A DNA stretch of 64,000 nt, taken from contig CACFIX010000003.1 of the NCBI GenBank assembly GCA_902566515.1, positions 3,889 to 67,888 of the forward strand, in the 5' to 3' direction. How positions within the stretch are numbered: position 1 is the first letter of the stretch; each line of letters begins with the position of its first letter. The translations under genes and the position numbers were made by a program. The stretch comes from an uncultured Candidatus Actinomarina sp. (lineage in GTDB: Bacteria; Actinomycetota; Acidimicrobiia; Actinomarinales; Actinomarinaceae). This document shows positions 10,363-51,534 of this stretch, piece after piece. Under the pieces are notes generated by a model that was given only the letters and a program-made list of their open reading frames with translations, ran no database searches and was not told the DNA's origin.

Positions 10363-10449
10363 CAACTTTTTTTTAATTAGATTTAATTCTAATCAACTTA
10401 AGTTAAGTTTAACTGGAATTGATTTAAAGTAAATGTTTTTTTAAAAAAA

Positions 10450-11070
10450 TTAGTACTGTTTTAGTATGTTTTCTACTAAATTTTCGGAGGTTTCAAGAAA
10501 AAACTCCTCTGAATATCTATTAAACAGTTCGTGATCGCCAATATTTAAGGCATATTCGAACATCGCTCCCCTAAAAGCTGTAGCAACATTTACAGCAATT
10601 TCATCTGCTCTGTCCTGATATTGCTCAGAATTACTCAATAAAGCTGTAATTGCTTGTACAGGATCTTGGTCTAGCCATTTATCAACATTGACTAAATTAA
10701 ACATTTGTACAACAATAACTTTTCCTGCATATCCGAGGCTTACAAGGTTCTCAGCATATGTAACTGGAATCTGCTTTAATTTCTCAATCACGCTTAAAGA
10801 TTCGTCCGCAAGTGTGGCACCCATGTTTGCCGCTACATCCATTCTGGAATGAACAATTGCAGAAAATACATCTTCCATTCTGTCAGGAAAATGATTGTAT
10901 GCTGTAGCAGGTGATACACCAGCTTCTTTTGCAATTTGAGTTAAAGTGACTTCTCTAATATCTCCAACTTCATTAATTACATCAACAGCTGTATCAATAA
11001 GTTTTGTCCTATTGAGGTCAAAAATATCTTGCTGCCTACGTGCTCTGCCGTCTTGTTGGATATCAGTCAT
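10450..11070 (-). CDS. TetR/AcrR family transcriptional regulator
   Basis: 206 aa ORF. The N-terminal HTH reads TLTQIAKEAGVSPATAYNHFPDRMEDVF, typical of TetR. It lies directly upstream of and co-directional with the giant gene. Confidence 0.8.
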   Translation of the reverse strand: MTDIQQDGRARRQQDIFDLNRTKLIDTAVDVINEVGDIREVTLTQIAKEAGVSPATAYNHFPDRMEDVFSAIVHSRMDVAANMGATLADESLSVIEKLKQIPVTYAENLVSLGYAGKVIVVQMFNLVNVDKWLDQDPVQAITALLSNSEQYQDRADEIAVNVATAFRGAMFEYALNIGDHELFNRYSEEFFLETSENLVENILKQY

Positions 11071-24271: not shown

Positions 24272-26035
24272 ATGAAAGAAAATAATTTAAGAGATTTATT
24301 TAACTACGCACTTGAGCAAGATACAAAGGTTCGTAGAGGAATAATTTATTCAATACTAAATAAAATATTTGACTTAGCTCCTCCTGTTTTGATTGGTATT
24401 GCAATAGATATAGTGGTGGAAGGATCTGATTCCTTTATAGGAAATCTTGGATATAGCGACAGAAGACAGCAATTAATTATTCTCGCCATCTTAACTTTTA
24501 TAATATGGGGACTAGAATCAGCATTCGATTATATCGCGGCTGTTACTTGGAGAAACATCTCTCAAGATATCGAACATTCTTTACGCACAGATGCCTTTAA
24601 TAATGTCCTCGGTCTTGATTTGGCTTTTTTTGAAAATAAATCTTCTGGAAGATTGATGGCAATCCTTAATGATGATGTAAATCAACTAGAGACTTTCTTG
24701 GATAACGGTGCAAACAGACTAGTTCAAACTGCTACAACCGTTCTTGTTATTGGTGGAACATTCTTGTATATTTCACCGCTAGTTGCTGTGTTTGCCTTTA
24801 TACCCATTCCAATTATTATTTTTGGCTCACTTAAATTCACTAACAGAATTGCAGAAAGGTATACAAAGATTCGAAATGATATAGAAAATTTAAATGCCAA
24901 TCTTTCGAACTCTCTTACAGGAATACTCACAGTAAAAAGTTTTAATAGAGAAAAAAAAGAAAGCGAAAGAATAATTTTTTCATCAAATGAGGTTAAAAGT
25001 GCAAATTATCATGCAATAAGACTATCTGCAGCATTTATTCCTATAATTCGAATTGCAATACTATTTGGATTTACAGCAACACTTTTAATTGGTGGTTTCT
25101 TAGCCCTAGACGGAGAAATTAAAGTAGCAACCTATTCAGTAATGCTATTTATAACACAGAGATTATTGTGGCCATTAACTGAACTCGGAGTGATTTTTGA
25201 TTCTTATCAAAAAGCAATGGCATCATTTAGACGAATTATAAATTTAAAAAATACTTCACCCACAATCGATAATGGAAACAAAAAGCTCACAAGTTTTAAT
25301 AATAAAATTGAGATATCAAATTTAAATTTTGAATATGTTACAAATTTTCCAGTTTTAAATGACGTTTCTATAGACATAAATAAAGGTCAAACTACAGCGA
25401 TTGTTGGAAGCACAGGTTCTGGGAAATCTACTCTAATAAAACTTATTTTAAGATTATACGATTCAACTTCTGGAGAAATTAAATTTGATGGCAAAAATAT
25501 AAGAGATTTAGAGTTAGACAGTTTGAGAAATAAAATCGGATTGGTTAGCCAAGATATATTTTTATTTGAAGGTACAGTTTTTGAAAATATTGCATACGGA
25601 AATCTAGATGCAAAAGATGAAGAAGTTTGGGAAGCAGCAAAACTTTCAGAGTCTGACAAATTTATAAATCTATTGCCTAATAAAGAAAATACAATCGTTG
25701 GAGAAAGAGGACAAAAACTATCAGGTGGCCAAAGGCAAAGAATCTCAATAGCAAGAGCAATACTAAAAAATCCAGAAATATTAATTTTAGATGAAGCAAC
25801 TTCAGCCGTTGACAATGAAACTGAAGCTGCAATACAGAGGTCTATTAATACCTTAAAAGAAGGAAGGACTGTTATTGCAATAGCGCATCGTTTATCCACT
25901 ATAAGAAATGCTGAAATTATTTATGTTTTAGAAAAAGGTAAAGTTGTTGAATCTGGAAATCACGAAAGCCTTCTAGAAATTAATGGAGTTTACTCAAAGC
26001 TATGGTCAGTTCAAACAGGAGAAAAAATTAGTTAA
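24272..26035 (+). CDS. ABC transporter, fused permease/ATPase (exporter type)
   Basis: 587 aa. It has a six-TM N-terminal half, Walker A GSTGSGKST, signature LSGGQRQR, and Walker B ILILDEATSAVD. Confidence 0.9.
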   Translation: MKENNLRDLFNYALEQDTKVRRGIIYSILNKIFDLAPPVLIGIAIDIVVEGSDSFIGNLGYSDRRQQLIILAILTFIIWGLESAFDYIAAVTWRNISQDIEHSLRTDAFNNVLGLDLAFFENKSSGRLMAILNDDVNQLETFLDNGANRLVQTATTVLVIGGTFLYISPLVAVFAFIPIPIIIFGSLKFTNRIAERYTKIRNDIENLNANLSNSLTGILTVKSFNREKKESERIIFSSNEVKSANYHAIRLSAAFIPIIRIAILFGFTATLLIGGFLALDGEIKVATYSVMLFITQRLLWPLTELGVIFDSYQKAMASFRRIINLKNTSPTIDNGNKKLTSFNNKIEISNLNFEYVTNFPVLNDVSIDINKGQTTAIVGSTGSGKSTLIKLILRLYDSTSGEIKFDGKNIRDLELDSLRNKIGLVSQDIFLFEGTVFENIAYGNLDAKDEEVWEAAKLSESDKFINLLPNKENTIVGERGQKLSGGQRQRISIARAILKNPEILILDEATSAVDNETEAAIQRSINTLKEGRTVIAIAHRLSTIRNAEIIYVLEKGKVVESGNHESLLEINGVYSKLWSVQTGEKIS

Positions 26036-27206
26036 TCTTTTCTGCAATATACTCACCAATAGCTAAAGAAGCTGTTGCTGCAGGGCTTGGTGCATTTAGA
26101 ACATGAAGAGAGTTATTACCCTCCTCAAAAACAAAATCGTCAATCAAGTCGCCGTTAGAACTTACAGCTTGCGCCCTTACTCCAGCTACTCGGGGTTCTA
26201 AATCTTTTAACTCAACATTAGGAATATAATTTAATATTTCCTTTAGAAATACTCTCTTATTTAAAGATCTATACATCTCAGAAACTCCTGTACCAAAGTA
26301 TTTCTTGCCTAGCTTCCACATTCCTTTGTATGAAATTGTTTTACTAAATTCAAAAACATTTATGTTGCTCCATTTATATCCCTCTTTAGCAAATGCTAAA
26401 ACTGCATTTGGACCAGCTTCAATTTGACCATCAACTGTTTTGGTAAGATGAATACCCAAAAATGGTAAGTTTGGATCACTTATTGGATAAATCATATTAT
26501 TTACTAAATGAGATTTCTCTTGATTCAATACAAAATATTCACCCCTAAAAGGAATTATTCTTAAATTGGGCTTAATATTGTCCATTAAGGCAACTGTATC
26601 AGAAAATAAACCTGCACAGTTTATTAGATATTCTGAAGTAAATGTTTCCTTATCACTGGTAAGAATTTTAAAATCATTTTTTGAATCTATTGATTTTATT
26701 TTTTGAAAATATTTAACAGTTCCTCCTAAAGTCTCAAATTTCTTCGCAATTGTCTCTGTTACTACCTTATAGTCAACTACTCCAGCCTGAGGAACATATA
26801 ATGCTGATTCAAATTTACAATTTGGTTCTAAATCTAGTATCTCATTTCTTTCCAAAGGCCTTACACCATCCATGTTAAGTTCTTTAGCTCTATTGTTTAA
26901 ATGGGTAATTTTTTCTATATCATGATCGACTACAATTTTTCCTTCAATTCTGAATGGGATGCTTTCCGAATTCATAAAATCAATTAATAGTTCTCTACCT
27001 CTAATACAAAGATTTGATTTGAAAGACTGAGGTTTGTAATAAATTCCAGAATGAATAACTCCTGAGTTTCTACCAGACTGGTGGGTCCCTGGAGATTTTT
27101 CTTTATCTAATACAAGAACATTTTTACCTTGTTCTTGTAATTTTAGAGCCGTTGAGAGACCAACAATACCTGCCCCTACAATTGCAACATCATATATTTT
27201 ATTCAT
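26028..27206 (-). CDS. FAD-dependent oxidoreductase, L-2-hydroxyglutarate oxidase-like
   Basis: The FAD-binding motif is YDVAIVGAGIVGLS. The track ORF start (27251) reads into the tmRNA gene, so I trimmed it to ATG 27206 (MNKIYDVAIVGAG). Confidence 0.75.
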   Translation of the reverse strand: MNKIYDVAIVGAGIVGLSTALKLQEQGKNVLVLDKEKSPGTHQSGRNSGVIHSGIYYKPQSFKSNLCIRGRELLIDFMNSESIPFRIEGKIVVDHDIEKITHLNNRAKELNMDGVRPLERNEILDLEPNCKFESALYVPQAGVVDYKVVTETIAKKFETLGGTVKYFQKIKSIDSKNDFKILTSDKETFTSEYLINCAGLFSDTVALMDNIKPNLRIIPFRGEYFVLNQEKSHLVNNMIYPISDPNLPFLGIHLTKTVDGQIEAGPNAVLAFAKEGYKWSNINVFEFSKTISYKGMWKLGKKYFGTGVSEMYRSLNKRVFLKEILNYIPNVELKDLEPRVAGVRAQAVSSNGDLIDDFVFEEGNNSLHVLNAPSPAATASLAIGEYIAEKIN

Positions 27207-27543
27207 GGTGGAGGTGCGGGGAGTCGAACCCCGGTCCTTCCAAGCTATCAAACAGATTCTCCGAGTGCATCCGATGTTTTACTGCTAGGCAAGTCATCGG
27301 AACCTATAACCTAACAGGTTTACCTAAATCTTAAGAGTTAGTCGGTAACCCAACTCAGCATCCCACATTTCGACGCCATTGCTATCCGAGGTGGGAACCC
27401 CGATAGGTGACGAGCAGCTGTTAGGCTGCTAAAGCCAACTTAGGTTTGGCAGTTATATTGTTTTCCTACGTTTTTTACGAGGCCCTAGGACCCTCGACTC
27501 GCTACTGAGAGACTCGCTTCAAAGTCGAAGCCAGTTCACCCCC
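27206..27543 (-). ncRNA. ssrA: tmRNA (ssrA), one-piece
   Basis: On the reverse complement the 5' end is GGGGGTGAACTGGCTTCGAC and the 3' end is GGACCGGGGTTCGACTCCCCGCACCTCCACCA. The acceptor stem has a G3-U70 pair. The tag frame ends ...GCC AAA CCT AAG TTG GCT TTA GCA GCC TAA (..AKPKLALAA stop). Confidence 0.92.
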
Positions 27544-27595: not shown

Positions 27596-28240
27596 ATGAA
27601 AATTAATAACAATAGCTTTGAACTAAACGAACAATTACAAATGGTAATTGATTCAAATGATAATGATGGGTTAATTTTTATACCAAAAAATATTCAACTT
27701 GATGTAGAAATAGAAAACTATTTTGGAAAAATTGTAATTTGTAAGTTAGTTATTCATCCTTCTGAGAGTGAATTTCAAATTGGTAAATTAACAATTGAAA
27801 ATAACATTCCAAATATGGATATTAAGTTACTTGATCGATATATTTATAAAGTTTTATCTGACAAGTCTGGATTAGCCTACTCTCCTTACAAATTTTTCCC
27901 TAATTACGATTTTACAGTTTTTGAAAAAGGCAGAAGGCCCTCGCCGTTAGATTGGGCTATGTTTGCTTCTATATATGTGTTTAGTTGCAATGTCTTACCG
28001 CAATCAATAAAAGTAGAATTATCACTTGCAAAGTATCTAAGAATATCAGAGGAAAACTTTAAAAGATTTATGAAAAAGATTCCTGAAGATTTATTTAGAA
28101 AATCAGGACACACCGAATCTAGAGGTGGGGATATCTCATTGAATGCAGAAAATTTAATTAAAGAATTTCTAGGAGCAGAACAGGAATCTTTTGAGAACAA
28201 TCCTTTTTTAAAGTTTTACTCTGAAGCTGATTTTGCCTGA
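27596..28240 (+). CDS. Hypothetical protein (orphan, 214 aa)
   Basis: It is a clean ORF in an otherwise fully coding region. I recognise no motif in it. Confidence 0.5.
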   Translation: MKINNNSFELNEQLQMVIDSNDNDGLIFIPKNIQLDVEIENYFGKIVICKLVIHPSESEFQIGKLTIENNIPNMDIKLLDRYIYKVLSDKSGLAYSPYKFFPNYDFTVFEKGRRPSPLDWAMFASIYVFSCNVLPQSIKVELSLAKYLRISEENFKRFMKKIPEDLFRKSGHTESRGGDISLNAENLIKEFLGAEQESFENNPFLKFYSEADFA

Positions 28241-28659
28241 GCTCTGCTGACCATAGATATAACCTTATTAACATCAATTTCCCATATTTCTCTGGATTTG
28301 AATCCTGCTTGCTCCCAAGTGACATCTTTTGTTCTACCATATGGTTTACCTGAATATCTATTTGATAAATAATCTATGTGCTCATTTGCAGTTGAATCTT
28401 GAACAATATTCCCAACAACGCCCCTTAACTCCCAGCATGTATACATATCAGATGGATGAAATATAACTAGTGAAATATTTGGTTCCTTCCTAATGTTTAC
28501 TGTTTTTTTTCTTCCTTGCTCTGTATTGATAAGAATTTTATTATCTTTGTAATCAACCCACATTAAATGATTCTGCATCTCTTTTTCATTGATTTTGGTT
28601 GATAATGCACAAAAAGCATTGTTATCAATTGCTTGCTTAAGTTCATTAGGAAGTTGCAT
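28216..28659 (-). CDS. Pyridoxamine 5'-phosphate oxidase-like (PPOX-class, possibly F420/FMN-dependent) protein
   Basis: 147 aa. Its split-barrel-like pattern (CALSTK...HLMWVDY...KILINTEQGRKKTVNIRK.PNISLVI) resembles PPOX-class proteins. This rests on family recall only. Confidence 0.55.
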   Translation of the reverse strand: MQLPNELKQAIDNNAFCALSTKINEKEMQNHLMWVDYKDNKILINTEQGRKKTVNIRKEPNISLVIFHPSDMYTCWELRGVVGNIVQDSTANEHIDYLSNRYSGKPYGRTKDVTWEQAGFKSREIWEIDVNKVISMVSRAQAKSASE

Positions 28660-28689
28660 ACATCCTTATTTTAAGTAAAAATTATTAAT

Positions 28690-29250
28690 ATGGCATTTAT
28701 TAAATTGTTCAAATTTAATGACTCTACTGGTCTTCTCAAAAAAGAGTACGAGAAAGGCTTGAGAAGAGCTGGGAGAATTTGGAACATACTGACTATTCAA
28801 TCTCAAACCCCAGAAATTTTAAGAGATTCGATGCGATTATATAATTCAACAATGTTTGGAAATTTAGAAATATCTCGTTTTGATAGAGAATTACTTGCAG
28901 TAATCACTTCAATTTCCAATGAATGCGAATATTGAATTCGAGCACATTTATATGATCTCCGGTCGGAGACAAAAGACCAAAAATTAGTTGATGAGATTGC
29001 TAATGATTGGAAAAAAAGTAGCTTAACAAAAGAACAAATCGCTTTATGTAATTTTGCGGAAAAATTGACTTTGAAACCGGGTGAAATAACACAATTTGAT
29101 TACAAAGAATTACAAAAAAATAATTTTGATGACAAAGCAATATCAGAAATAGTTCAAGTAATTTCCTACTTTAATTACATCAATAGAGTTGCCGATGGAC
29201 TTGGTTTAGAACCTGAGGAATTTATTGACGAAAAAGGTTATAAAAAATAA
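28690..29250 (+). CDS. AhpD/carboxymuconolactone-decarboxylase (CMD) family peroxidase-related protein with one in-frame TGA at the catalytic Cys position (candidate selenocysteine; alternatively a pseudogene)
   Basis: Track ORFs 28690-28935 and 29065-29250 share a frame (375 nt apart), and the only stop between them is TGA 28933-28935. The joined reading is ...RELLAVITSISNECEY[TGA]IRAHLYDL..., which is E-x11-C-x-x-[TGA]-x3-H, the AhpD active-site pattern. The C-terminal part ...ALCNFAEKLTLKPGEIT...VISYFNYINRVADGLG is typical of the family. Confidence 0.7.
28953..28971 (+). promoter_or_regulatory. Candidate bacterial SECIS-like hairpin downstream of the in-frame TGA
   Basis: The sequence UG(A)UCUCC-GGUC-GGAGACA forms a 7 bp stem with one bulged A and a GGUC apical loop. 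The loop G lies 26-27 nt after the UGA. The hairpin is small and weak. Confidence 0.35.
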
Positions 29251-29290
29251 AGTACCTTGTAAGAATTTAAAGTACTTATAACATATAGAT

Positions 29291-30436
29291 ATGCAACAAA
29301 ACACTAAAGGCTTACTCCTTTTTGTATTTTTAATTTCCGTAAGTGTAGTTGGTATAAACCTTTTTAACAATAATGATTCTGAAGAGAGTGTAGAGGTAAC
29401 TCAAACAACATTATTTGAAGCTACCACGACAACATCTCCTGTAGTTAAAATCGAAAAATATGCTTATCCAAGTTTTGATTTTGAAAAAGAAACAACATCC
29501 TCTCTGGAGTCTATAAGTGACTTATGTTACATAACAGGAAATTGGTTCAGCTTAACAAGAGAGTGTCTTTCAGAATGGGAAAATTCATTAAAAATTATCG
29601 ATAGTAAAAGAGATGCTTACCTTGAACATTATGAATACACTTTGAATTATTTTAAAAATAATTATGCCAATATTGATGAAGATACATTTTTGTATATTGT
29701 TTCAACTTTGACAATTAATGAGAGGGTAAATTTCTTTACGTCACAATTAAAAGAAGTTGAGGAAGTAATAAGAATCAAAGAAAATCAAGATGAAAATATT
29801 ACATCTATATTTTTATCGGACGAATCAGTTACAAAATCTAAAGAGTTGGAAACAGAAGATCTGAAAAACGGTTGTTATCTAGAGAATTCAGAAGATCCTA
29901 TAGAGAATCCTGAACTTATTGAAGTTGAAACAATAAATACAAGAGATGACAAAAAGTTTAATTTTGGAATAAAGGTTGAATCTTCTTTAAATATCGATCC
30001 TGAGTGTATAAAAAAGTTATTGGATTTGATATTGAATCATGAAAAAGGCTGGATAAACATAACTAATAAAGGCTTCTATCATACAAACGTTGAAGATAGT
30101 GATTTCGTATATACATTTGCTTCTCCTGAAACTACTGACGAACTTTGTTACCCCTTGCAAACAAATGGGATATATTCATGTAGAAATGAAAGAGAGATAG
30201 TTATTAACGACTTTAGATGGAAAAATGGTGCTAGGGATTTTTTAAGAGATTTAGAAACTTACAGATTGTATCTTATTAATCATGAAACTGGCCATATTTT
30301 AGGTTGGGGGCACACAAGTTGTCCTAAAGAAGGTGCAATTGCACCAGTAATGATGCAACAAAGTAAAGGTACTGATGGATGTATTCCATATGGTTGGCCT
30401 ATTTACGAAATTATAAAAGCCAATTTTGGTGATTAG
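29291..30436 (+). CDS. Membrane-anchored secreted protein with HExxHxxGxxH zinc-binding motif (DUF3152-like, from memory)
   Basis: 381 aa. It has an N-terminal TM segment LLLFVFLISVSVVGINLF and, near the C-terminus, the motif INHETGHILGWGH. Confidence 0.55.
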   Translation: MQQNTKGLLLFVFLISVSVVGINLFNNNDSEESVEVTQTTLFEATTTTSPVVKIEKYAYPSFDFEKETTSSLESISDLCYITGNWFSLTRECLSEWENSLKIIDSKRDAYLEHYEYTLNYFKNNYANIDEDTFLYIVSTLTINERVNFFTSQLKEVEEVIRIKENQDENITSIFLSDESVTKSKELETEDLKNGCYLENSEDPIENPELIEVETINTRDDKKFNFGIKVESSLNIDPECIKKLLDLILNHEKGWINITNKGFYHTNVEDSDFVYTFASPETTDELCYPLQTNGIYSCRNEREIVINDFRWKNGARDFLRDLETYRLYLINHETGHILGWGHTSCPKEGAIAPVMMQQSKGTDGCIPYGWPIYEIIKANFGD

Positions 30437-30523
30437 TTAATTTTATTGGTGCCAGCCTTAATAACTAAATTGTTATTTTATTATCGTGTTGTTTTGTTTT
30501 TATTACAATAGTTTTTTAAAAAT

Positions 30524-31447
30524 TTAAAGAGCTACAGATTCATCCCCGGCTAAAATTTTTTTTATATTTTCAATAGTTTCTAAACCTGCTTTAAGTTGAG
30601 CTTCATTTGTAGATGCACCCATGTGTGGAGTGGTAACCAGATTTAAGCCATTATATCGATCTACATTTTTTGGTGGTTCATTTGAATATACATCCAACCC
30701 AGCTCCAAAAACTTTCTCTGATTCTAAAAGTTCAAATAAATAATCTTCATCCAAAACACCACCTCTTGAAGTATTTACAATTATTGAACTGGGTTTGAGT
30801 AAATCTAGCATGTCTTTAGAAATCAAATTTTCTGTATCCTTAGTCTTAATTACATGAATTGATACTACATCTGCAGTTCTTAGTAAATCATCAAGCTTGA
30901 TACTTTCTTCTGAACCATTCCAGTCCGTAACATATGGATCATAAAATACAATTGACATACCAAAACTTTTCATTCTCTCTGCGACTAAACGACCAGCTTT
31001 ACCAAAGCCAACTATTCCTAATGTTTTTCCATAAAGTTCATAGCCTAGAAATTGAGATCTGTTCCATTCACCTTTCTTAAGATGCGAATCAGCAAGGCTT
31101 AATTTTCTAGATACACTGATTATTAAAGCAACTGTTAACTCAACAACAGATATTAAATTAGCTGAGGGAGAATTAGTAACAAAAATATTCTTAGATTTTG
31201 CAAAATCTATATCAACATTATCTATCCCAACACCACACCTAGCTATTATTTTTAGTTGTTCTGCGTTGTCTAAAACTTCTTTTGTTAATTTTGTAGCACT
31301 ACGTATTACTACAATTTCACAGTCTTTTATATGATTAGCTAAGTCTTTATCTTTTGAATTAGATTTAGATATATCTACACAATCACCGATTGTTTCAAGC
31401 TCTTTATAAACTTGTTGATTCAAGTTATCACAGATAAGTATTTTCAT
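30524..31447 (-). CDS. D-isomer specific 2-hydroxyacid dehydrogenase (phosphoglycerate dehydrogenase-like)
   Basis: 307 aa. It has the NAD site LGIVGFGKAGRLVA and the catalytic-region pattern NTSRGGVLDE...TPHMGAST. Confidence 0.8.
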   Translation of the reverse strand: MKILICDNLNQQVYKELETIGDCVDISKSNSKDKDLANHIKDCEIVVIRSATKLTKEVLDNAEQLKIIARCGVGIDNVDIDFAKSKNIFVTNSPSANLISVVELTVALIISVSRKLSLADSHLKKGEWNRSQFLGYELYGKTLGIVGFGKAGRLVAERMKSFGMSIVFYDPYVTDWNGSEESIKLDDLLRTADVVSIHVIKTKDTENLISKDMLDLLKPSSIIVNTSRGGVLDEDYLFELLESEKVFGAGLDVYSNEPPKNVDRYNGLNLVTTPHMGASTNEAQLKAGLETIENIKKILAGDESVAL

Positions 31448-32309: not shown

Positions 32310-32558
32310 TTAAATGTAATTTAATTGTTTTAGTTTTAGCTCCAACTCAACATCAGATGGCTCAACTAGAAAAGTATCGTCCTCAAATACAATAGTTGGG
32401 ATTCTTCTCTGATTGTTTTGTAACTTTGTTATGTATTCATTTGCTTCTGAGTTGATATCTACATTGATTTCTTCAAAATCAACATTCAATTTGTTAAGTA
32501 AAGCTTTAGATCGTACACAATCCCCACACCAGTCAGTTGTGTAGAATTTAATATTCAT
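32310..32558 (-). CDS. Glutaredoxin-like / mycoredoxin-like small thiol-disulfide oxidoreductase
   Basis: 82 aa. It has the FYTTDWCGDCVRSK CxxC motif and a thioredoxin-fold length. Confidence 0.7.
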   Translation of the reverse strand: MNIKFYTTDWCGDCVRSKALLNKLNVDFEEINVDINSEANEYITKLQNNQRRIPTIVFEDDTFLVEPSDVELELKLKQLNYI

Positions 32559-32843: not shown

Positions 32844-33152
32844 TTAGATTAAAGCGGAAACTTTTTCTTTAATTACTTCTTTTGGCTGTACACCAACAAA
32901 ACGTTCTTTGACTTCCCCGCCTTTTAACATAACTACTGTTGGTACTCCCATAACTCCATTGGCTCCAGCGATATCTGGATGTTGATCGACGTCAAGCTTC
33001 ACAAACTCTACTCCTTCAACTTCACTTGATAACTCTTCAAGGATTGGACTTAAAACTTTGCATGGACCACACCATGTTGCGTGAAAATCAATAACAACTG
33101 GCGAATCGGAATTAAGTAATTCGCTATATTCTTGTGCATTTATATCTTTCAT
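32844..33152 (-). CDS. trxA: Thioredoxin
   Basis: 102 aa with the WCGPCK active site. Confidence 0.92.
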   Translation of the reverse strand: MKDINAQEYSELLNSDSPVVIDFHATWCGPCKVLSPILEELSSEVEGVEFVKLDVDQHPDIAGANGVMGVPTVVMLKGGEVKERFVGVQPKEVIKEKVSALI

Positions 33153-37443: not shown

Positions 37444-38127
37444 TTACCTAAGAATATAACTTCCTTCACTTTCATCTCTAGCAATTTTTCCGTTTGCAAG
37501 TTCAATAACTCGTTTTTTTCTTCTATTCACGATTGAAGAATCATGTGTAGCCATAACAACTGTTGTTCCAGCTCTATTGATTTTTTCAAGCAAAGAAACT
37601 ATCTGGATACTCAATTCAGGATCAAGATTACCTGTAGGCTCATCACACAAAAGTACAAGTGGATTGTTAGCTAATGACCTTGCAATACTTACTCTTGTTT
37701 GTTCACCACCAGAAAGTTGGTCTGGATATTTAAAAGCATTTTCATTTAGCTCTACAAGATCTAATAAGGTATTTGTTTTAGATTCGATCTCATCATTTGG
37801 AGTGCCCATAACTTCTAAAGCAAAAGCTATATTTTCGTAAGTATTTCTCTTTTCTAATAGTTGAGGCTCTTGAGTAACAATTCCAAGTTTTCTTCTTAAC
37901 AATGGTGTCTTCCATCTAGGCAGTTGAACAACATCGAGTCCTGCAACTTCAATACTTCCTTTTGTAGAAATATACTCCTTATATAAAAGTTTTAGAAAAG
38001 AAGACTTTCCGCTTCCAGAATGACCAACAAGATAAACGAATTCTCCTTCGTTTATAGTCGTACTTATATTGGAAAGTGCAACACTTCCACCTTGAAATAC
38101 TAATGAAACATTATCTAACTTAATCAT
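37444..38127 (-). CDS. ftsE: Cell division ATP-binding protein FtsE
   Basis: 227 aa. It has Walker A GHSGSGKSS, signature LSGGEQTR, and Walker B LLCDEPTGNLD. Confidence 0.9.
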   Translation of the reverse strand: MIKLDNVSLVFQGGSVALSNISTTINEGEFVYLVGHSGSGKSSFLKLLYKEYISTKGSIEVAGLDVVQLPRWKTPLLRRKLGIVTQEPQLLEKRNTYENIAFALEVMGTPNDEIESKTNTLLDLVELNENAFKYPDQLSGGEQTRVSIARSLANNPLVLLCDEPTGNLDPELSIQIVSLLEKINRAGTTVVMATHDSSIVNRRKKRVIELANGKIARDESEGSYILR

Positions 38128-39224
38128 TTATTCCCTGTCTACGCCATTTTAGGTACTCTTTAATAAATATGGAAATATCCCCATCAAGAACATTCTGTAC
38201 ATTTCCAACCTCAACACTGTTTCTAGCATCTTTTACTTGCTGATATGGTTGAAGTACATAAGACCTAATTTGCCTTCCCCATCCAGCCTCGTGCTGATCT
38301 CCTCTTATTTCATTCAATTTTTTTAATTCTTCTTCTCTTTTTTTTAATAATAATTTTGTTTTTAAAAGTTCTAATGCTCTTGTTTTATTTTGAAGCTGAG
38401 ATCTTTCTGCCTGACAAGCCACAACTATTCCAGTAGCAATATGTGTAATTCTTACAGCTGAATCTGTAGTATTTACATGCTGACCTCCTGCTCCAGAAGA
38501 TCTATAAACATCAATTCTTATTTCATCATCTTGGATATTAATTTCGTCATTATTTTCAATTAAAGGAATTACATCTACTCCTGCAAAGCTAGTGTGTCTT
38601 CTTTTATTACTATCAAAAGGGCTAATTCTTACTAATCTATGAACTCCTCTTTCACTCTCTAAATTTGCATATGCTCTAAATCCATTGATTCTTATAGACG
38701 CTGACTTAATTCCCGCTTCTTCACCCTGAGAGATTTCTTCAATTTGATGATCTATATTGTTACTGGAAAGGTGTCTTGTATACATTCTTAAAAGCATCTC
38801 AGCCCAGTCATGAGCATCAACCCCACCAGCACCTGCATTAATAGTCAAAACTGCATTCAAGTCATCATACTTATCGAAATAAAGTGCTTCGTCTTCAATC
38901 TCCTCAATCATATTTTCTAATTTATTTATTTCATCTTGATAAACTTCTTCATTGATATTTTCTTCTTCAGTAAGCTCAATTAATTCTTTAAGCTCTTTGA
39001 GGTCATTTTCTAAACTACTTAAAGACGTTATCAATTTTTCTATTGTAGAAGCTTCAATTGATACCTTTTGGGCATACTGCGGATTGTCCCAAAATCCTTT
39101 TTTATTTATCTCAAGGTTTAATTGATCAAGCTTCTTTTTTTTGTTTTCAAAGTCAAAGATACCCCTTTGCAGAAATCAATCTTTCATTAAAAGTGCTAAC
39201 TTTGCTTAAGATTTCTTTATACAT
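38120..39224 (-). CDS. prfB: Peptide chain release factor 2 (requires programmed +1 frameshift)
   Basis: Frame 0 is ATG 39224 ... MYKEILSKVSTFNERLISAKGYL then TGA (39155-39153). The +1 frame continues DFENKKKKLDQLNLEINKKGFWDNPQYAQK... into the track ORF 38120-39034. The RF2 motifs SPF (RISPFDS) and GGQ (SGAGGQHVN) are present. Total length is ~367 aa. Confidence 0.92.
39152..39167 (-). promoter_or_regulatory. prfB autoregulatory +1 frameshift site (SD-like AGGGG, then TAT CTT TGA C)
   Basis: The reverse complement of 39152-39170 reads GCAAAGGGGTATCTTTGAC. This is essentially the same as the classical E. coli prfB shift site AGGGGGTATCTTTGAC. Confidence 0.9.
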
Positions 39225-41824
39225 TTATCAACCATTCCACATTTTTTATATTTTATACCTGAACCACAATAGCAAGGATCATTCCTACCAATCTTATCTT
39301 TAATTATTTGTGTAGTCTTTACATTATCCTTGTTTTCTTGATTTTGTAAGATAAAACTTTTATCAAAATTCATAAGAATTCTAATTACTGAAAACTTAAC
39401 ATTCTCTATTAAATCCTCAAAAAGTGTATATCCCTCATTTTGGTACTCAACAAGCGGATCTCTTTGACCCATTGCCCTTAGTCCAATTCCAGATCTTAAA
39501 TAATCCATTTCAGCTAAATGATCCTTCCAAGATTGGTCAATAAATGATAGAGATGAACCTCTTGCTAATTTCCAAAATGTATCAGAGTCTTGTGATTCAT
39601 TATTATTAAAAAGATTCTCCAGCTCATGATCAATTTGCAATTGATCATTGATTTCGATATTTCTTACAAATTCTTTTTTAACTCCATCACTTAATAAATT
39701 ACTTAATTCATCAGAAATTAATTGGTTGAAATGCTCTAAGTTTTCGTAATTTTTTTTATATAGTTCAATATTATTTGAAATTGTGCTGACAACATCATCA
39801 AACCATTCTGAAATTAGATTTTCAATACTATCTGACCTAAGTAGTTGTCTTCTCCATTTGTATATAACTTCCCTTTGTTGATTTAGAACTTGATCAAATT
39901 TAAGTACATTTTTTCTGATTTCAAAATTGAGTGATTCAACCTGAGCTTGCGCTCTTTCTATACTTTTAGTAACCATTGATTGTTCTATTCGTTCTTCATC
40001 TGGAAGATTGAGTTTATTCATTATTGATTCAATTCTTTCACCTTGAAATCTTCTCATTAAATCATCTTGAAGTGAAATATAGAATCTTGACTCTCCAGGG
40101 TCACCCTGCCTTCCAGATCTTCCTCTTAACTGATTATCAATTCTTCTTGAGTCATGTCTCTCCGTGCCTAAAACATAAAGCCCACCAAGTTCTAATACTT
40201 TATTTTTTTCTTCATCAACTTGTAACTCCAACTCATTAATCTTTGAATCTAAATACATTGGATCGTCTAATTTATCTTCAATTATTTGGTGCTGAACTGC
40301 CATGTCCTCAGGATTTCCACCTAGTTTTATGTCAACACCTCTACCAGCCATATTTGTGGCAACCGTAACAGCGCCTAATCTTCCCGCCTGTGCAATGATT
40401 TGCGCTTCCTGTTCATGATTTTTTGCATTTAAAACATTATGTACGATTCCTTTATTGGTTAATTGTTTAGATACTTCTTCTGAAGCTTCGACAGATACAG
40501 TTCCTAATAAGATTGGTTGTCCTTTTTTGTTTCTGTCAATAATATCGTCAATAACTGCGTTAAGTTTTGCTTCATTGGTTTTATATACAGCATCCTGTTG
40601 ATCTATTCTCTGTATAGGTAGGTTCGTTGGAATTTCAACAACCTCAAGATTGTATATTTGAATAAACTCTTCTTCTTCAGTTTTTGCAGTACCTGTCATT
40701 CCTGCCAAATTTTCATACATTCTAAAATAGTTTTGATATGTTATTGATGCTAGTGTTTGGTTTTCATCTTGGATTCTCACATTTTCTTTAGCTTCTAATG
40801 CTTGATGTAACCCGTCTGAATACCTCCTTCCTTCAAGAACTCTGCCAGTAAATTCATCAACAATGTTGATTTGGCCATTTGAGACAATATAATCTACATC
40901 TTTTGCAAATATTGTTTTAGCTCTTAAACATGCTGTTAAATAATGTATAAAGTTTGTTTGTGAGTTTTCATATAAATTTGAGATACCCAGCTTTGACTCT
41001 ACATACTCAATGCCTAATTCTGTAGGATGAACTTGTTTTTTGGCTTCATCAATATCATAGTGAACATCTCTTTTCATTCCTTTTACAATCTTGGTAAACT
41101 CTGTGTACCATTTTGTTGAATCACTTACCTTGCCAGAGATAATTAAAGGGGTTCTTGCTTCGTCAACTAGTATTGAATCTACCTCATCAATAACACTGTA
41201 AAACAAATCTCCTTGAACTAGTTGTTCACTTGAAATTGCCATGTTGTCTCTGAGATAATCAAAACCAAATTCATTGTTGGTACCATATGTAATATCTTTT
41301 TTGTATGCTTTAATCTTTTCTTCATAATCTTGATTTGAATAAATCAGGCCTACTTCAAGACCTAAAAAATTATAAATTGGGCTCATCCACTCTGCGTCCC
41401 TTTTTGCGAGGTATTCATTAACTGTTACAACATGTACGCCTTTTTTATATAAAGCCATTAAAGAGATGGGCAAGGTTGAAACAAGAGTTTTACCTTCACC
41501 AGTTTTCATTTCAGATATTTTATTTCTAAGAAGAACCAGTCCTCCAAATAGTTGAACATCATAATGTCTTTGATTAAGTGTTCTTTTTGCAGCCTCTCTT
41601 ATATATGCAAATGCTTCTACCTCAATATCTGATGGTGAATCAACAATTTTTTCAGAAAGATTCTGAAAATTAGTTTTTATTTCTTCATCGGATAATTTTT
41701 CAAAAGATTGTTCTTTTTTATTTATCTCTTCAACAATCCCATTTAGCTCAGAAGTTAACTTCCCACTACCAACTGAAAGTGCTTTTTTAAATAAATTCAA
41801 ATTTAGCTGGTGCCATGCTCCCAA
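39206..41824 (-). CDS. secA: Preprotein translocase ATPase SecA
   Basis: 872 aa. It has Walker A MKTGEGKTL, the DEAD-like motif DEVDSILVDEARTPLIISG, and the C-terminal zinc site CYCGSGIKYKKC. The start is uncertain: TTG 41824 overlaps ahcY, and an in-frame TTG at 41800 is an alternative. Confidence 0.92.
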   Translation of the reverse strand: MGAWHQLNLNLFKKALSVGSGKLTSELNGIVEEINKKEQSFEKLSDEEIKTNFQNLSEKIVDSPSDIEVEAFAYIREAAKRTLNQRHYDVQLFGGLVLLRNKISEMKTGEGKTLVSTLPISLMALYKKGVHVVTVNEYLAKRDAEWMSPIYNFLGLEVGLIYSNQDYEEKIKAYKKDITYGTNNEFGFDYLRDNMAISSEQLVQGDLFYSVIDEVDSILVDEARTPLIISGKVSDSTKWYTEFTKIVKGMKRDVHYDIDEAKKQVHPTELGIEYVESKLGISNLYENSQTNFIHYLTACLRAKTIFAKDVDYIVSNGQINIVDEFTGRVLEGRRYSDGLHQALEAKENVRIQDENQTLASITYQNYFRMYENLAGMTGTAKTEEEEFIQIYNLEVVEIPTNLPIQRIDQQDAVYKTNEAKLNAVIDDIIDRNKKGQPILLGTVSVEASEEVSKQLTNKGIVHNVLNAKNHEQEAQIIAQAGRLGAVTVATNMAGRGVDIKLGGNPEDMAVQHQIIEDKLDDPMYLDSKINELELQVDEEKNKVLELGGLYVLGTERHDSRRIDNQLRGRSGRQGDPGESRFYISLQDDLMRRFQGERIESIMNKLNLPDEERIEQSMVTKSIERAQAQVESLNFEIRKNVLKFDQVLNQQREVIYKWRRQLLRSDSIENLISEWFDDVVSTISNNIELYKKNYENLEHFNQLISDELSNLLSDGVKKEFVRNIEINDQLQIDHELENLFNNNESQDSDTFWKLARGSSLSFIDQSWKDHLAEMDYLRSGIGLRAMGQRDPLVEYQNEGYTLFEDLIENVKFSVIRILMNFDKSFILQNQENKDNVKTTQIIKDKIGRNDPCYCGSGIKYKKCGMVDKCIKKS

Positions 41825-43050: not shown

Positions 43051-44040
43051 CTATCCTTTTAATTTTTTCTTTAAATTTTCAATAGCATCAATGTTAAATG
43101 GATCAATATTTAATTGATCTGCTATATTAACACTTACTAAATCACCTATTAAGACTAAATGAAACAAATCTATAATTAAATTGTCAGATGAAATATTTCT
43201 AACATCAATCGTGTCTACTTTTGAGCCTATAAGTTCCTTTGTAAATTCAAATCTATTGTCTATCTTTTTATAGTCATCTCCTCTAAGAAGGATTAAAATA
43301 AAGTTATTTTTTGATCCCTCTTGGTCTGCTTCCCATGAAAGTATTTCATTATGGTGTACTTCGGGCATGAAACCAACATAAGCTTTAGATTTAGAATTCT
43401 CATTTATTTGTGTTTTCCATCTTTGAGCAACCAAATAGGTTAAGTCTGAACCAGCGTAAATTACAGCAGTTTTCGTTCCTATTTGATTAGCAATATTCTT
43501 TGAAATTTCAAAAACTTCATTTGAAGCGTCTTTCGTTAAATTATTTAAATAATTTCCAGCTTCCTCACATGCATTAATAAAAATCTCTTTAGTTGGATTT
43601 GGTAAATAATTAATAACTGCTTTGGTCATGAGACCAAATGCAGCCCTAGGCTGAAGCCCATTTGGTACTTTGACAAACTTTTTATTATGTTTAGTTGCTA
43701 AATCTAGAAGCTCTCCACCACTAGAGATTGCTGCCCATTCCAAATTTTCATCTATTGCATCCTTAGCAACACTTATTGTTTCTTCTGTATTTCCAGAATA
43801 CGAAATGAATAAACAAAAAGGTCGGGCTGCTATTTGGTTTTTTGTTAAATTGTATGTTTTCCTAACTTCTACATCTATATTGGTATGTTGATTTAATATA
43901 AGTTTAAGAACATCACCTGCTACTCCAGAACCACCCATCCCAACAATAAGAATTCTCTCATAATCAACTGATGCAAATCCCTCTGAAGTCTCTAAATCAG
44001 TTGTTAGCTGATTACCTAAATTTAAAACATGTTCTAACAT
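43051..44040 (-). CDS. SIS-domain bifunctional phosphoglucose/phosphomannose isomerase family protein
   Basis: 329 aa. It has the SIS motif ILIVGMGGSGVAGD and a second SIS-like half, and lies next to manB. Confidence 0.7.
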   Translation of the reverse strand: MLEHVLNLGNQLTTDLETSEGFASVDYERILIVGMGGSGVAGDVLKLILNQHTNIDVEVRKTYNLTKNQIAARPFCLFISYSGNTEETISVAKDAIDENLEWAAISSGGELLDLATKHNKKFVKVPNGLQPRAAFGLMTKAVINYLPNPTKEIFINACEEAGNYLNNLTKDASNEVFEISKNIANQIGTKTAVIYAGSDLTYLVAQRWKTQINENSKSKAYVGFMPEVHHNEILSWEADQEGSKNNFILILLRGDDYKKIDNRFEFTKELIGSKVDTIDVRNISSDNLIIDLFHLVLIGDLVSVNIADQLNIDPFNIDAIENLKKKLKG

Positions 44041-44046
44041 TTACAA

Positions 44047-45381
44047 CTAAATACTACTCGAAATTTTTTCTAAAACTTGATCAAGAATTTCTTGAGTATC
44101 AGCTTCAACATTAATTCTTAACTTATTTTCAGTATTTGAACCCCTGACATTAAACCAAAAGTTTCTATACAGACAACTAAGTCCGTCAGTTTGATCAAAC
44201 TCCCCTTCAAAGATGCTTTCAATTTTGCTAATTGACTCATTAATATCTTCAACAGAAAAATTTATTTCACCAGAACTAGGTGGAAAGTTATAGTTATCAA
44301 TTATTGAGCTGAGTTTGTCTTTATTATTGGAAAGCAATTTCATAAATATCAAAAGTGTGAGAATTGCAGAATCAGCATAAAAGTTATCTCTGTAATAAAA
44401 ATGTGCGCTATGTTCTCCGCCAAAATCAGCATCTACATCACGCATCATTTTTTTTATATTGGAATGACCAACTTTACATTTATATAATTCAATATTGTTG
44501 TTTTTCATCATTTTTAAAGCATGAGGAGAGACGTTTACATTGTGGACTACACTAAATTCATTTTTTTGTGAAGACAAAAATTCTGATATTAAGACTGTCA
44601 TCATACTCCCTGAAATAACTCTCCCAAGATTATCTATAAATACACCTCTATCAGCGTCCCCATCAAATGCTATTCCAAAATCTAGATCATTATCTATTAC
44701 TAAATTTTTTAAATCAGTTAAGTTTGATTCGTCTGATGGGTCAGCAGGATGATTAGGGAAATTTCCATCAACTTCTAAATATATAGCCTTCGCATTGAAT
44801 TTGTATATATTATTTAAAGTATCAAATACCGCACCAAATACACCGTTTCCTCCATCAATACCAAAATTTAATTTTTGTGAAATACTCTCTGGAGATACTA
44901 AGTTTTTGAGATGTTCATAATATTCATTACCTAAGTATTTGTCGTTAATTTTAAATTTCTCAATACGTATTTCTAAATTTCTATCGGCTAATTTTTTGAT
45001 ATCCATTAGGCCAGAGTTTTCACCTATTGGTATTGCGCCAGCACTACAGAGTTTTAAACCATTATAATTTTTTGGATTGTGTGAAGCAGTAATTATTGCA
45101 CCTGGTTTTTTAAGTAAGCCGGATAGTGAATAGACAGTATCTGTTGGGACTAATCCAACATAGATAATTTCCTTGTTAATGGATTTAATTCCAGAAGTAA
45201 AGGCATCAAGCATTTCAATATTTGAAACTCTCCCGTCATGACCAACAATAATAGTGTCATCTGGAACAAATTCTGCAAAAGCTTTGCCAATTTTATATGC
45301 TATATCTTGGTCTATACTGTCACCATAAACACCTCTGATGTCATAAGATTTAAAAATTAAATCTAGTTTATTTTTTGTCAT
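44047..45381 (-). CDS. Phosphomannomutase/phosphoglucomutase
   Basis: 444 aa. It has the active-site TASHNP, the metal loop FDGDADR, and the sugar loop GGEHSAH. Confidence 0.88.
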   Translation of the reverse strand: MTKNKLDLIFKSYDIRGVYGDSIDQDIAYKIGKAFAEFVPDDTIIVGHDGRVSNIEMLDAFTSGIKSINKEIIYVGLVPTDTVYSLSGLLKKPGAIITASHNPKNYNGLKLCSAGAIPIGENSGLMDIKKLADRNLEIRIEKFKINDKYLGNEYYEHLKNLVSPESISQKLNFGIDGGNGVFGAVFDTLNNIYKFNAKAIYLEVDGNFPNHPADPSDESNLTDLKNLVIDNDLDFGIAFDGDADRGVFIDNLGRVISGSMMTVLISEFLSSQKNEFSVVHNVNVSPHALKMMKNNNIELYKCKVGHSNIKKMMRDVDADFGGEHSAHFYYRDNFYADSAILTLLIFMKLLSNNKDKLSSIIDNYNFPPSSGEINFSVEDINESISKIESIFEGEFDQTDGLSCLYRNFWFNVRGSNTENKLRINVEADTQEILDQVLEKISSSI

Positions 45382-45402
45382 TACTCAATTATTGTACTGT
45401 TC

Positions 45403-46137
45403 ATGGATTCAAACTCTAGTTTTAATAACTTTTCAATTGTGATTCCTATTTATAATGAGGAAGATATTCTTGCCGAATCAATAAATAATATTCTCTCTAT
45501 TTGTGAGAGAACATCTGTCGAATATGAAATCATAATCTCAGAAAATGGGTCTACTGACAATACAAAAAATCTTGCTAGAGATTTTGAACAAAATAATTCC
45601 AAAATAGTTTTAATTGAAAGCGATCATCCAAATTATGGTGAAGCACTGAAAAGAGGATTTTTGAAATGCAAAAATGAAATTATAATTTCATTTGATATTG
45701 ACTACTATTCTGAAAGTTTTCTAAAAGAGTGTTTATTGCTTGAGGATAAATATGCAGGTTTAATTGCTTCAAAAAGATTGAGCAATTCTGAAGATGGAAG
45801 AAGACTGATACGAAAATTGGCCACTAATTTCTTTGTTTATATTTTAAGAATTTTATTTAAAACTAAATTATCTGACACACACGGAATGAAAGCAGTCAGA
45901 AAAAGTTTTGTAAATAATCATATTGATTTAGTAATTTCAACACAAGATTTATTTGATACAGAGCTACTACTTAGAATTGAAAGAACTGGAAATGAATTTA
46001 AGGAAGTTCCCGCCAAAATTAACGAAATAAGACCAAGTGTTTCAGTTATATATAAAAGAATTCCAAGAACTTTGAAGAGCTTATTTAAGCTAAAAATTGC
46101 TTTTTATAAAGAGTCCTTAAAAACAAAAAATTTATAA
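45403..46137 (+). CDS. Family 2 glycosyltransferase (polyprenyl-phosphate sugar synthase-like: GtrB / CsbB / Ppm1 type)
   Basis: 244 aa. The N-terminus is SIVIPIYNEE, there is a DxD-like FDIDY, and no TM domain is obvious. Confidence 0.75.
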   Translation: MDSNSSFNNFSIVIPIYNEEDILAESINNILSICERTSVEYEIIISENGSTDNTKNLARDFEQNNSKIVLIESDHPNYGEALKRGFLKCKNEIIISFDIDYYSESFLKECLLLEDKYAGLIASKRLSNSEDGRRLIRKLATNFFVYILRILFKTKLSDTHGMKAVRKSFVNNHIDLVISTQDLFDTELLLRIERTGNEFKEVPAKINEIRPSVSVIYKRIPRTLKSLFKLKIAFYKESLKTKNL

Positions 46138-46565
46138 ATTAAATACTTGATTGGAAGTATTGATCCATGAATTAAAACTGTAATTACCAAATAATAGAAC
46201 TCGTTTTTTTGAAATTCAGGGTTCCATAAATTAATTAAAAACCAAACAAGAATTGGGATTCCTAAATTAAGTAAGCTAACAGAAATATATTTAACGAACT
46301 CCCTCCATGAGCCATCAAGATATGAAAGTTGAAAAATAATTTTTCTTGATAAAAAATAAGAAACCACTACACCAATTGCAAATGAAAATGTATTAGTTAA
46401 ATAAGTTCTGAGAGGAAAACTAATCATAGTTAAAATTAAAAATTGAAAAATATAATTCAAAAAAAGACCAAATATTAAATTAAATGCTCCAACAATATAT
46501 GTTCTAAATAATTCAGCAAATGAGCTGTCACTTTTTGTGAGTTTGTTAATGAGATTATTCAGCAT
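46104..46565 (-). CDS. GtrA family membrane protein (putative polyprenyl-P-sugar flippase)
   Basis: 153 aa. It has four predicted TM helices and the GtrA-like N-terminal pattern FAELFRTYIVGAFNLIFGLFLNYIF. Confidence 0.7.
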   Translation of the reverse strand: MLNNLINKLTKSDSSFAELFRTYIVGAFNLIFGLFLNYIFQFLILTMISFPLRTYLTNTFSFAIGVVVSYFLSRKIIFQLSYLDGSWREFVKYISVSLLNLGIPILVWFLINLWNPEFQKNEFYYLVITVLIHGSILPIKYLIYKFFVFKDSL

Positions 46566-48741: not shown

Positions 48742-48979
48742 TTAAGGTTTTTCCCAAGTATTTTGTTCTTCTTTTTCCATTTTCTGTCCATTCGGCATAC
48801 CAATATGGACCGTGTGGACATTTTTGGCATGATTCTTTACCGCATTTAATATTTTTTGACCTATATGAGACGTTAATGTCTTTATGAAGATTTAATTTAT
48901 TATCAACTAGAAGCTTTATTCTCTTTAAGTCTGTTTCGTTTAGTTCAGCTAAACCTTCTAGAATATCTTTATCTATCAT
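48731..48979 (-). CDS. Small zinc-ribbon protein, DUF6788-like (CGK..C..C.HGPYWY motif)
   Basis: 82 aa. The motif is KCGKESCQKCPHGPYWYAEWTENGKRRTKYLGK. It overlaps the start of the GT-C-like gene by 11 nt. Confidence 0.5.
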   Translation of the reverse strand: MIDKDILEGLAELNETDLKRIKLLVDNKLNLHKDINVSYRSKNIKCGKESCQKCPHGPYWYAEWTENGKRRTKYLGKTLSEV

Positions 48980-49024
48980 TATTAAAATGTTAGTTGAAAG
49001 GTCAAGAATAATAGGTTCTTAAAA

Positions 49025-51532: not shown

Positions 51533-51534
51533 TT

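Follow-up and report, generated by a model that had tools for sequence, protein, structure and literature searches.

A predicted selenocysteine-containing AhpD-like oxidoreductase of the TIGR01926 family in Candidatus Actinomarina

Positions 28690-29250 of the 64-kb stretch of Candidatus Actinomarina DNA analysed here (the whole of which is called the window) very probably constitute one functional gene for a selenocysteine (Sec)-containing AhpD-like thiol/selenol oxidoreductase, a member of the TIGR01926 branch of the AhpD/CMD proteins. The gene carries a single in-frame TGA at the position of a catalytic Cys. A first-pass annotation made from the window alone had favored a selenoprotein over a nonsense mutation, and this preference is borne out by the conservation of the TGA, by selection on the codons downstream of it, by a covarying hairpin, and by alignment with Cys-containing homologues.

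One gene with a single in-frame TGA

Translation of 28690-29250 on the forward strand yielded 186 sense codons with TGA 28933-28935 as the single internal stop. The residues around this codon read ...RELLAVITSISNEC-E-Y-[TGA]-I-R-A-H-LYDL.... The features of the gene are as follows.

28690..29250, + strand: CDS of the predicted AhpD-like (TIGR01926) selenoprotein, 186 codons, Sec82 among them, and a TAA stop (29248-29250)
28888..28947, + strand: active-site segment E67-x11-C79-x2-U82-x3-H86, its spacing taken directly from the sequence
28888-28890, 28924-28926, 28933-28935 and 28945-28947, + strand: catalytic codons of E67, C79 (TGC), U82 and H86, respectively
28933..28935, + strand: UGA codon 82, predicted selenocysteine, equal to the second Cys of CxxC (C79-E-Y-U82)

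The first-pass annotation had described a single reading frame whose sole interruption is this TGA, and within it the arrangement E-x11-C-x-x-C-x3-H with the TGA at the second Cys. Our retranslation agrees with the former, and the spacing of E67, C79, U82, and H86 matches the latter exactly. The two ORFs that a mechanical ORF finder gives for this single gene, 28690-28935 and 29065-29250, do not represent two independent small genes. The frame is open from 28936, past the TGA, and the separate ORF 29065-29250 is artificial, its start having been placed at the first TTG that follows the stop. The gene is demonstrably intact, with 104 codons between the TGA (codon 82) and the terminal TAA. Its Actinomarina orthologues, found in 11 genomes, comprise 186-190 codons and share a common ATG start (MAFI...). 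In an alignment of 30 sequences, E67, Y81, and H86 were invariant.

For profile searches, the window protein was used with Cys substituted at position 82. It scored 134.4 bits against the NCBIfam model TIGR01926 "peroxidase-related enzyme" (cutoff 81.8), which covered residues 13-176 of 186, and 30.9 bits against Pfam CMD (PF02627; gathering score 23); the generic AhpD core-domain model, TIGR00778, was also passed with 31.8 bits. When the family profile was compared with solved structures, the full-length match to PDB 6K40 reached E = 1.9e-38, and the others were 3C1L, 2PFX, 2OYO, and 2PRR; E-values for these solved CxxC proteins ranged from 1.9e-38 to 1.8e-29. Alignment to Cys homologues had been proposed as a check in the first pass, and at the level of single residues the TGA column falls on the second Cys of CxxC, namely that of NRCVYC in 6K40 and of NHCYYC in 3C1L. 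Cys also occupies this column in the sequences L034 and P0046-P0050, which completes a Sec/Cys pair. Judged by its sequence, the window gene has the characters of the AhpD-like TIGR01926 CxxU selenoprotein family, to which the profile scores firmly assign it.

Closely allied families fit less well. The window protein has the catalytic Glu, Cys-x-x-Cys, and His of AhpD, yet no match to the AhpD equivalog model occurred among the NCBIfam hits, where TIGR00778 was the one generic AhpD match, and there is no ahpC neighbor; we therefore do not regard it as AhpD sensu stricto. A gamma-carboxymuconolactone decarboxylase (PcaC) was rejected as well. The only match in that direction was the broad Pfam CMD model; the NCBIfam hits contained no PcaC model, and the ORFs of the window include no pca genes nearby. 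Two AhpD-superfamily models that do provide for Sec were scored far under their cutoffs, which rules out membership in either: NF041238 'AhpD_rel_CFYUT alkylhydroperoxidase-related (seleno)protein' (55 bits against a cutoff of 175) and NF053654 'YciW-related (seleno)protein' (19.5 bits against 310).

Conservation of the TGA and of a downstream hairpin

To find relatives of the gene, one genome per GTDB species was scanned, and the codon at the TGA column was examined in the best 80 loci. TGA stood at the codon-82 column in 79 of these 80 best genomic relatives, which represent at least eight phyla and span 31-74% GC. The 79 loci include all 11 of 11 Candidatus Actinomarina genomes, and TGA was also found in Acidimicrobiia, Acidobacteriota, several Chloroflexota orders, Latescibacterota, Marinimicrobia, Gemmatimonadota, Planctomycetota, Calditrichota (Calditrichaceae), and others. 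The closest loci, L001 and L002, are 97% and 96% identical to the window protein in amino acids, respectively, and L003-L010 together with L017 are 73-92% identical; these come from Actinomarina single-cell (SAG) and metagenome-assembled (MAG) genomes. The one Cys form among the best 80, L034, has Thr for the first Cys and hence a TxxC motif. No Actinomarina sequence had TGG or TGY at codon 82, and none of the 80 genomes, including those of up to 74% GC, had TGG in the column.

In protein databases, about 40 clusters with 70-97% identity show "W" at the Sec column. We inspected the DNA behind two of them (549 and 655 member sequences), and in both metagenome contigs the codon was TGA. The "W" in the databases is therefore attributable to metagenome-mode gene callers applying a code-4 model.

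The part of the gene that follows the TGA is under purifying selection. Among the window gene and ten Actinomarina orthologues, dN/dS downstream of the TGA was about 0.06-0.3, comparable to that of the part before it, while synonymous sites were near saturation (pS 0.5-0.9). Further disabling mutations in close relatives, named in the first pass among the observations that would speak against a selenoprotein, did not turn up: the window gene and the ten full-length Actinomarina orthologues contain no extra stops or frameshifts after the TGA, and the 104 downstream codons stay open.

Shortly after the UGA, the coding sequence contains a hairpin of the bacterial SECIS (bSECIS) type.

28953..28971, + strand: bacterial SECIS-type hairpin within the CDS, UG-A(bulge)-UCUCC / GGUC loop / GGAGA-CA
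28956-28969, + strand: its core stem-loop UCUCC/GGUC/GGAGA, which two further pairs across the bulged A extend to 28953-28971

The hairpin lies 20 nt 3' of the UGA, and 25 nt separate the UGA from the first nucleotide of the apical loop. It combines a 4-nt loop beginning with GG and a stem of 5 bp, or 7 bp with the bulged A. The published bSECIS model specifies a loop of 3-9 nt, a stem of 4-16 bp, a G in the first two loop positions, and a spacing of 16-37 nt (PMC13188914); the loop, stem, and spacing of the window hairpin all fall inside these ranges.

Folded alone, the hairpin is unimpressive. The isolated 26-nt hairpin has a free energy of -6.9 kcal/mol and so narrowly misses the bSECISearch energy threshold of -7.5 kcal/mol or lower, which is a search heuristic and not a biological definition; a 50-nt segment reaches -8.0 kcal/mol with a different fold. 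Hairpins of relatives in GC-rich phyla have about -11 kcal/mol. In single-sequence folding, the 26-nt hairpin was not clearly better than its shuffles (z = -1.97), and the minimum-energy folds of 50 nt and 71 nt around the TGA chose other pairings and were no better than shuffles. It is the comparative evidence that makes the hairpin convincing. A hairpin occurs at the same position in all 80 TGA-containing sequences, in most phyla as GACCUC / CGGGNU / GAGGUC, encoded by D-L-R-x-E-V. Over the 80 aligned sequences, 93.5% of the cells of the 7-bp hairpin were paired, as against 22-48% in slid registers. At two positions of the stem C-G alternates with U-A, in 15 and 4 sequences, and a third pair is C-G versus U-A/G-C. 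A total of 31 cells were changed on both sides in a compensatory manner, a number matched by none of 500 shuffles.

Conservation of the hairpin across phyla is partly confounded by the conserved peptide D-L-R-x-E-V. Because amino-acid conservation could mimic part of the covariation, we examined codon choice within Actinomarina. Codons 89-94 (GAT CTC CGG TCG GAG ACA) are fixed in 12 Actinomarina sequences except for three changes, the pair-preserving CTC-to-CTT in two sequences and ACA-to-ACT in one. In the long ORFs of the window, CGG is used for none of 455 Arg residues, TCG for 3% of Ser, and CTC for 5% of Leu. Elsewhere in the gene, the Arg, Ser, and Leu codons of the Actinomarina sequences vary freely. 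That these rare codons are fixed while the others vary demonstrates selection on the RNA and not on the protein. Thus, as far as aligned sequences can tell, the hairpin at 28953-28971 is a covarying SECIS-like element under RNA-level selection.

Probable recoding of UGA82, and proposed redox chemistry and role

UGA serves as a genuine stop elsewhere in the window. TGA terminates 7 of 39 long ORFs, and the first-pass annotation had pointed to ORF 60358-60738, which we also see ending in TGA, as well as to a release factor 2 (RF2) gene with a UGA frameshift site; both parts of the latter were located.

38120-39034, - strand: RF2
39158-39152, - strand: RF2 autoregulatory frameshift site AGGGG-N3-CUU UGA C

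Two scans of the window, for long and for short ORFs split by a single TGA, detected no other selenoprotein genes; whatever else they returned was antisense noise or came from the frameshift of RF2.

The Sec machinery itself lies outside this stretch. ARAGORN and Rfam found no tRNA-Sec in the 64-kb window, ARAGORN found none in the flanks of 60 related loci, and neither Pfam nor NCBIfam searches, which covered the 46 non-overlapped window ORFs of 120 aa or longer, revealed SelA, SelB, or SelD. The 2026 preprint "Actinomarina, resolved" covers 84 complete genomes of the genus and reports selC, selA, selD, and a divergent selB from every one of them (bioRxiv 10.64898/2026.04.03.716425). Since the 64 kb hold no sel genes or tRNA-Sec, the Sec competence of the source genome rests on this genus-level report. 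The same preprint predicts about 5 selenoproteins per Actinomarina genome, mostly uncharacterised, and no selenouridine synthase; the AhpD-like family is not named in its main text or supplement (bioRxiv 10.64898/2026.04.03.716425).

With this background, we infer SelB-dependent insertion of Sec. As the ribosome reaches UGA82, the hairpin at 28953-28971 would act as a bSECIS and recruit SelB with Sec-tRNA(Sec); the UGA at codon 82 would escape RF2, Sec would be inserted, and translation would run 104 more codons to the TAA. Other readings of the codon have to be weighed against this one. A nonsense mutation from TGY to TGA at the catalytic codon would have left the gene dead or cut to 81 residues, and such a pseudogene might be suspected from the way standard gene callers split the gene and from the lack of visible Sec machinery in the window. 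It is, however, at odds with a TGA shared by 79 of 80 orthologues in at least eight phyla and by every Actinomarina genome and metagenome contig examined, and with 104 downstream codons that are in frame, stop-free, and held at a dN/dS of 0.06-0.3. Conservation of the TGA and purifying selection on the codons behind it exclude a nonsense pseudogene, leaving it a vanishingly small probability.

Nor is it at all probable that UGA82 is read as a standard amino acid without Sec, be it Trp as in code 4 or Cys by near-cognate decoding. Public gene calls do give W at codon 82, and a small AT-rich genome is the setting in which UGA has been reassigned to Trp elsewhere. Yet the database "W" is a product of the code-4 gene-caller model, and UGA ends 7 of 39 long ORFs in a window that encodes RF2 with its autoregulatory UGA frameshift site. 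Furthermore, the column corresponds to the catalytic Cys of solved homologues, and 3' of the codon stands a dedicated hairpin on which selection acts at the RNA level. Trp, normally encoded by TGG, is excluded by the absence of TGG from the column in 80 genomes, by the use of UGA as a working stop, and by the presence of RF2.

In M. tuberculosis AhpD, a Glu-water-His relay activates the second Cys of CxxC, the attacking nucleophile, and resolution falls to the first Cys. The window protein has in common with this enzyme the E-x11-C-x2-C-x3-H arrangement and the AhpD core domain (TIGR00778); the two sequences are only distantly related, and the M. tuberculosis protein uses Cys, not Sec. M. tuberculosis ahpD also adjoins ahpC, whereas the window is without ahpC. 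If residue roles are alike, Sec82 would be the nucleophile in place of the second Cys and would attack an oxidised substrate; Cys79 would resolve the mixed selenosulfide, leaving an Se-S bond within the molecule, with E67 and H86 as the presumed proton relay.

The enzyme might reduce an oxidised peroxiredoxin-type partner, or hydroperoxides directly, and so contribute to oxidative-stress defence in the sunlit surface ocean. Our best guess, by analogy with the closest characterised Cys homologue, is a role in peroxide defence of a photoheterotroph of sunlit surface waters, and this is the least secure part of the proposal. Analogy is the basis here because the window has no peroxiredoxin or AhpC partner: neither Pfam nor NCBIfam scans detected a peroxiredoxin/AhpC domain among its ORFs. 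Candidate reductants, both recognised by eye, are encoded 3-4 kb away, a thioredoxin at 32844-33152 (WCGPC) and a NrdH-like glutaredoxin at 32310-32558.

A true selenoprotein with some other redox chemistry known from the AhpD/CMD superfamily, such as a further thiol/selenol-dependent reduction or the reduction of another protein partner, possibly tied to its DUF3152 or PPOX-class neighbors, is a possibility that we take seriously while thinking it the less probable. TIGR01926 members are annotated merely as 'peroxidase-related', the superfamily extends to decarboxylases and to Bmp8, a debrominase matched weakly in the PDB (E = 5.8e-05), and the window offers no AhpC/Prx gene. The DUF3152 gene begins 41 nt downstream of the selenoprotein gene, and in two related metagenome contigs a called gene follows at 41-42 nt. 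Against such a role, the complete AhpD constellation of E, C, C(U), and H is conserved, and the sole characterised close Cys homologue, DR1765, points to peroxide: its deletion sensitises D. radiodurans to H2O2 in a CxxC-dependent manner (reviewed in PMC8945050). Peroxide defence remains the role that we prefer.

The DUF3152 gene and the PPOX-class enzyme encoded upstream are conserved neighbors. Farther upstream are a tmRNA at 1.1 kb and tRNA-Gln at about 9.8 kb, a synteny common to Actinomarina loci. A scan of 28200-30600 for promoters and terminators gave nothing beyond chance. The GC content of the window, 30-37%, is in line with the genus Actinomarina.

Relation to known selenoproteins and SECIS elements

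The family is not new. The "AhpD-like protein" (COG2128, CxxU) was introduced as a new selenoprotein family of the Sargasso Sea in 2005, with 27 sequences and a predicted SECIS (PMC1088965), and the GOS survey of 2008 counted 299 Sec sequences and 902 Cys homologues of "AhpD-like 1", which ranked fourth in abundance among the prokaryotic selenoprotein families there (PMC2398784). It is listed as "AhpD-like protein, TIGR01926, CxxU" in a 2026 review (PMC13188914) and forms a browsable entry of BSepDB (PMC13326102). The first-pass statement that AhpD-like selenoproteins are known from marine metagenomes agrees with these sources (PMC1088965, PMC2398784, PMC13188914). The window gene shares with AhpD-like 1 of the metagenomes the TIGR01926 assignment, a CxxU motif whose predicted Sec takes the place of the second Cys, a predicted SECIS downstream, and the marine surface habitat. 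There is no difference in kind; what is added here is a named host lineage, Candidatus Actinomarina, to which the metagenome sequences were not attributed (PMC1088965, PMC2398784), and a SECIS backed by covariation and codon usage.

The solved protein DR1765 (6K40, "AhpD") and the structural-genomics "peroxidase-related proteins" 3C1L, 2PFX, 2OYO, and 2PRR resemble the window protein in full-length homology, in an aligned active-site helix, and in a size of about 190 aa; unlike it, they have CxxC and no recoding signal. As for the RNA element, the SECIS of E. coli fdhF (MG1655 sequence) is likewise an in-CDS hairpin 3' of the UGA, with an identical GGUC loop and a bulged stem nucleotide. In fdhF the loop stands 18 nt from the UGA, as against 25 nt in Actinomarina, where the stem is shorter and weaker.

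Since family, motif, and SECIS type have all been described, general knowledge of selenoproteins is unchanged. The family has been known since 2005, and Sec use in the lineage has just been reported; the finding is a sound annotation correction. Standard pipelines mis-annotate the gene, either splitting it or placing Trp at the catalytic position, so that its recognition puts right the proteome of a bacterium that ranks among the most abundant in the surface ocean. The finding also gives a functional label, that of an AhpD-like redox enzyme with a CxxU motif, to one of the approximately 5 largely uncharacterised selenoproteins per Actinomarina genome, and supports the proposal that oxidative-stress defence may be a use of the Sec machinery in so small a genome, of 1.1 Mb (bioRxiv 10.64898/2026.04.03.716425).

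Two aspects are mildly novel. One is the near-universal use of Sec predicted from the TGA codons of 79 of the 80 best relatives in a clade that extends across many phyla. Judging from these codons in at least eight phyla, with the SECIS fixed inside D-L-R-x-E-V, this TIGR01926 clade appears almost obligately Sec-dependent, as would be expected if the Sec form were ancient or had been transferred repeatedly, and not of recent Cys-to-Sec switches. The other is the retention of a very short SECIS against extreme codon bias, presumably read by the divergent SelB. Indeed, the SelB of Actinomarina, the supposed reader of the hairpin, has been reported as divergent (bioRxiv 10.64898/2026.04.03.716425). 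With its 5-bp stem, its GGUC tetraloop, a fold energy that falls short of the usual threshold, and codons nearly unused in the genome, the Actinomarina element may come close to a minimal natural bSECIS. The combined proposal, a near-minimal bSECIS read by a divergent SelB together with an ancient or repeatedly transferred Sec form, is a speculative one that we offer tentatively. If it is true, the minimum RNA determinants for recognition by SelB could be defined in Actinomarina, whose streamlined 1.1-Mb genome would be a compact natural system for this purpose.

Sec codon in relatives and in public gene calls

In the public metagenome gene calls for the related database proteins P0001-P0042 and the metagenome contigs L081 and L082, the Sec codon of the AhpD-like selenoprotein appears as 'W', because genetic code 4 was applied to these contigs. 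When the family's public metagenome gene calls were looked up, the contig DNA did not translate to the query protein. The code-4 'W' is a systematic annotation artefact that conceals selenoproteins in AT-rich marine contigs.

Among the 80 best genomic relatives compared at this codon, the sole Cys form was found in L034, an Acidobacteriota MAG locus (10238-10291). Here Thr occupies the position of the first Cys (S-T-R-Y-C, TxxC), as it likewise does in the database proteins P0046, P0048, and P0050, and the SECIS-region hairpin is degraded (GACUAU...GAGGUC).

Genes around the selenoprotein gene

The following genes accompany the selenoprotein gene (28690-29250, +):

28216-28659, -, PPOX-class protein gene, transcribed divergently from the selenoprotein gene at a distance of 30 nt
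29291-30436, +, DUF3152 protein gene, starting 41 nt past the selenoprotein stop
32310-32558, -, NrdH/glutaredoxin-like protein, motif CGDC, identified by eye
32844-33152, -, thioredoxin, motif WCGPC, identified by eye
49025-50612, +, F420 biosynthesis genes cofD and cofE, in the same window as the PPOX-class gene

The PPOX-class protein matched the F420-dependent model TIGR03618 with a score below that model's cutoff. The DUF3152 protein carries a zinc-protease-like motif, HETGHILG, and its gene may be co-transcribed with the selenoprotein gene; a called gene also lies 41-42 nt downstream of the selenoprotein homologue in L081 and L082. Both small thiol-redox genes, situated 3-4 kb downstream of the selenoprotein gene with a putative 93-aa membrane protein encoded between them, are in the Cys form, and their products might serve to reduce the AhpD-like protein.

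Other features of the window

1-10392, -, one uninterrupted frame, at least 3,464 codons long, extending past the left end of the window
26028-27251, -, L-2-hydroxyglutarate oxidase ORF with a mechanical TTG start
27206-27543, -, tmRNA gene
38120-39034, -, RF2 body
39152-39166, -, programmed +1 frameshift site of prfB, intact (AAGGGG TAT CTT TGA C)

At the prfB site, the frame before the shift reads ...ERLISAKGYL and the frame after it DFENKKKKLDQL...; this first frame is short and seems to start within the 3' end of secA (ORF 39206-41824).

Because the 1-10392 frame continues beyond the left end, no ORF of at least 120 aa was listed in 1-10450. Its product is composed of repeated Thr/Ser/Asn-rich modules of ~100 aa in which Cys, Trp, and 'DGG..W' motifs are conserved, and it resembles a giant cell-surface protein.

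The mechanical TTG start places the L-2-hydroxyglutarate oxidase ORF 46 nt into the tmRNA gene. The HMM match starts at residue 20, which makes the ATG at residue 17 (MNKIYDVAIVGAG) the probable true start.

GC content reaches the window minimum (0.276-0.30) at about 44000-52000, where a GT2 glycosyltransferase, a GtrA-like protein, an epimerase/dehydratase, a sugar nucleotidyltransferase, and a 728-aa protein without any Pfam match are encoded. An envelope-glycosylation flexible island has been described in Actinomarinales, and this low-GC stretch may be part of it.
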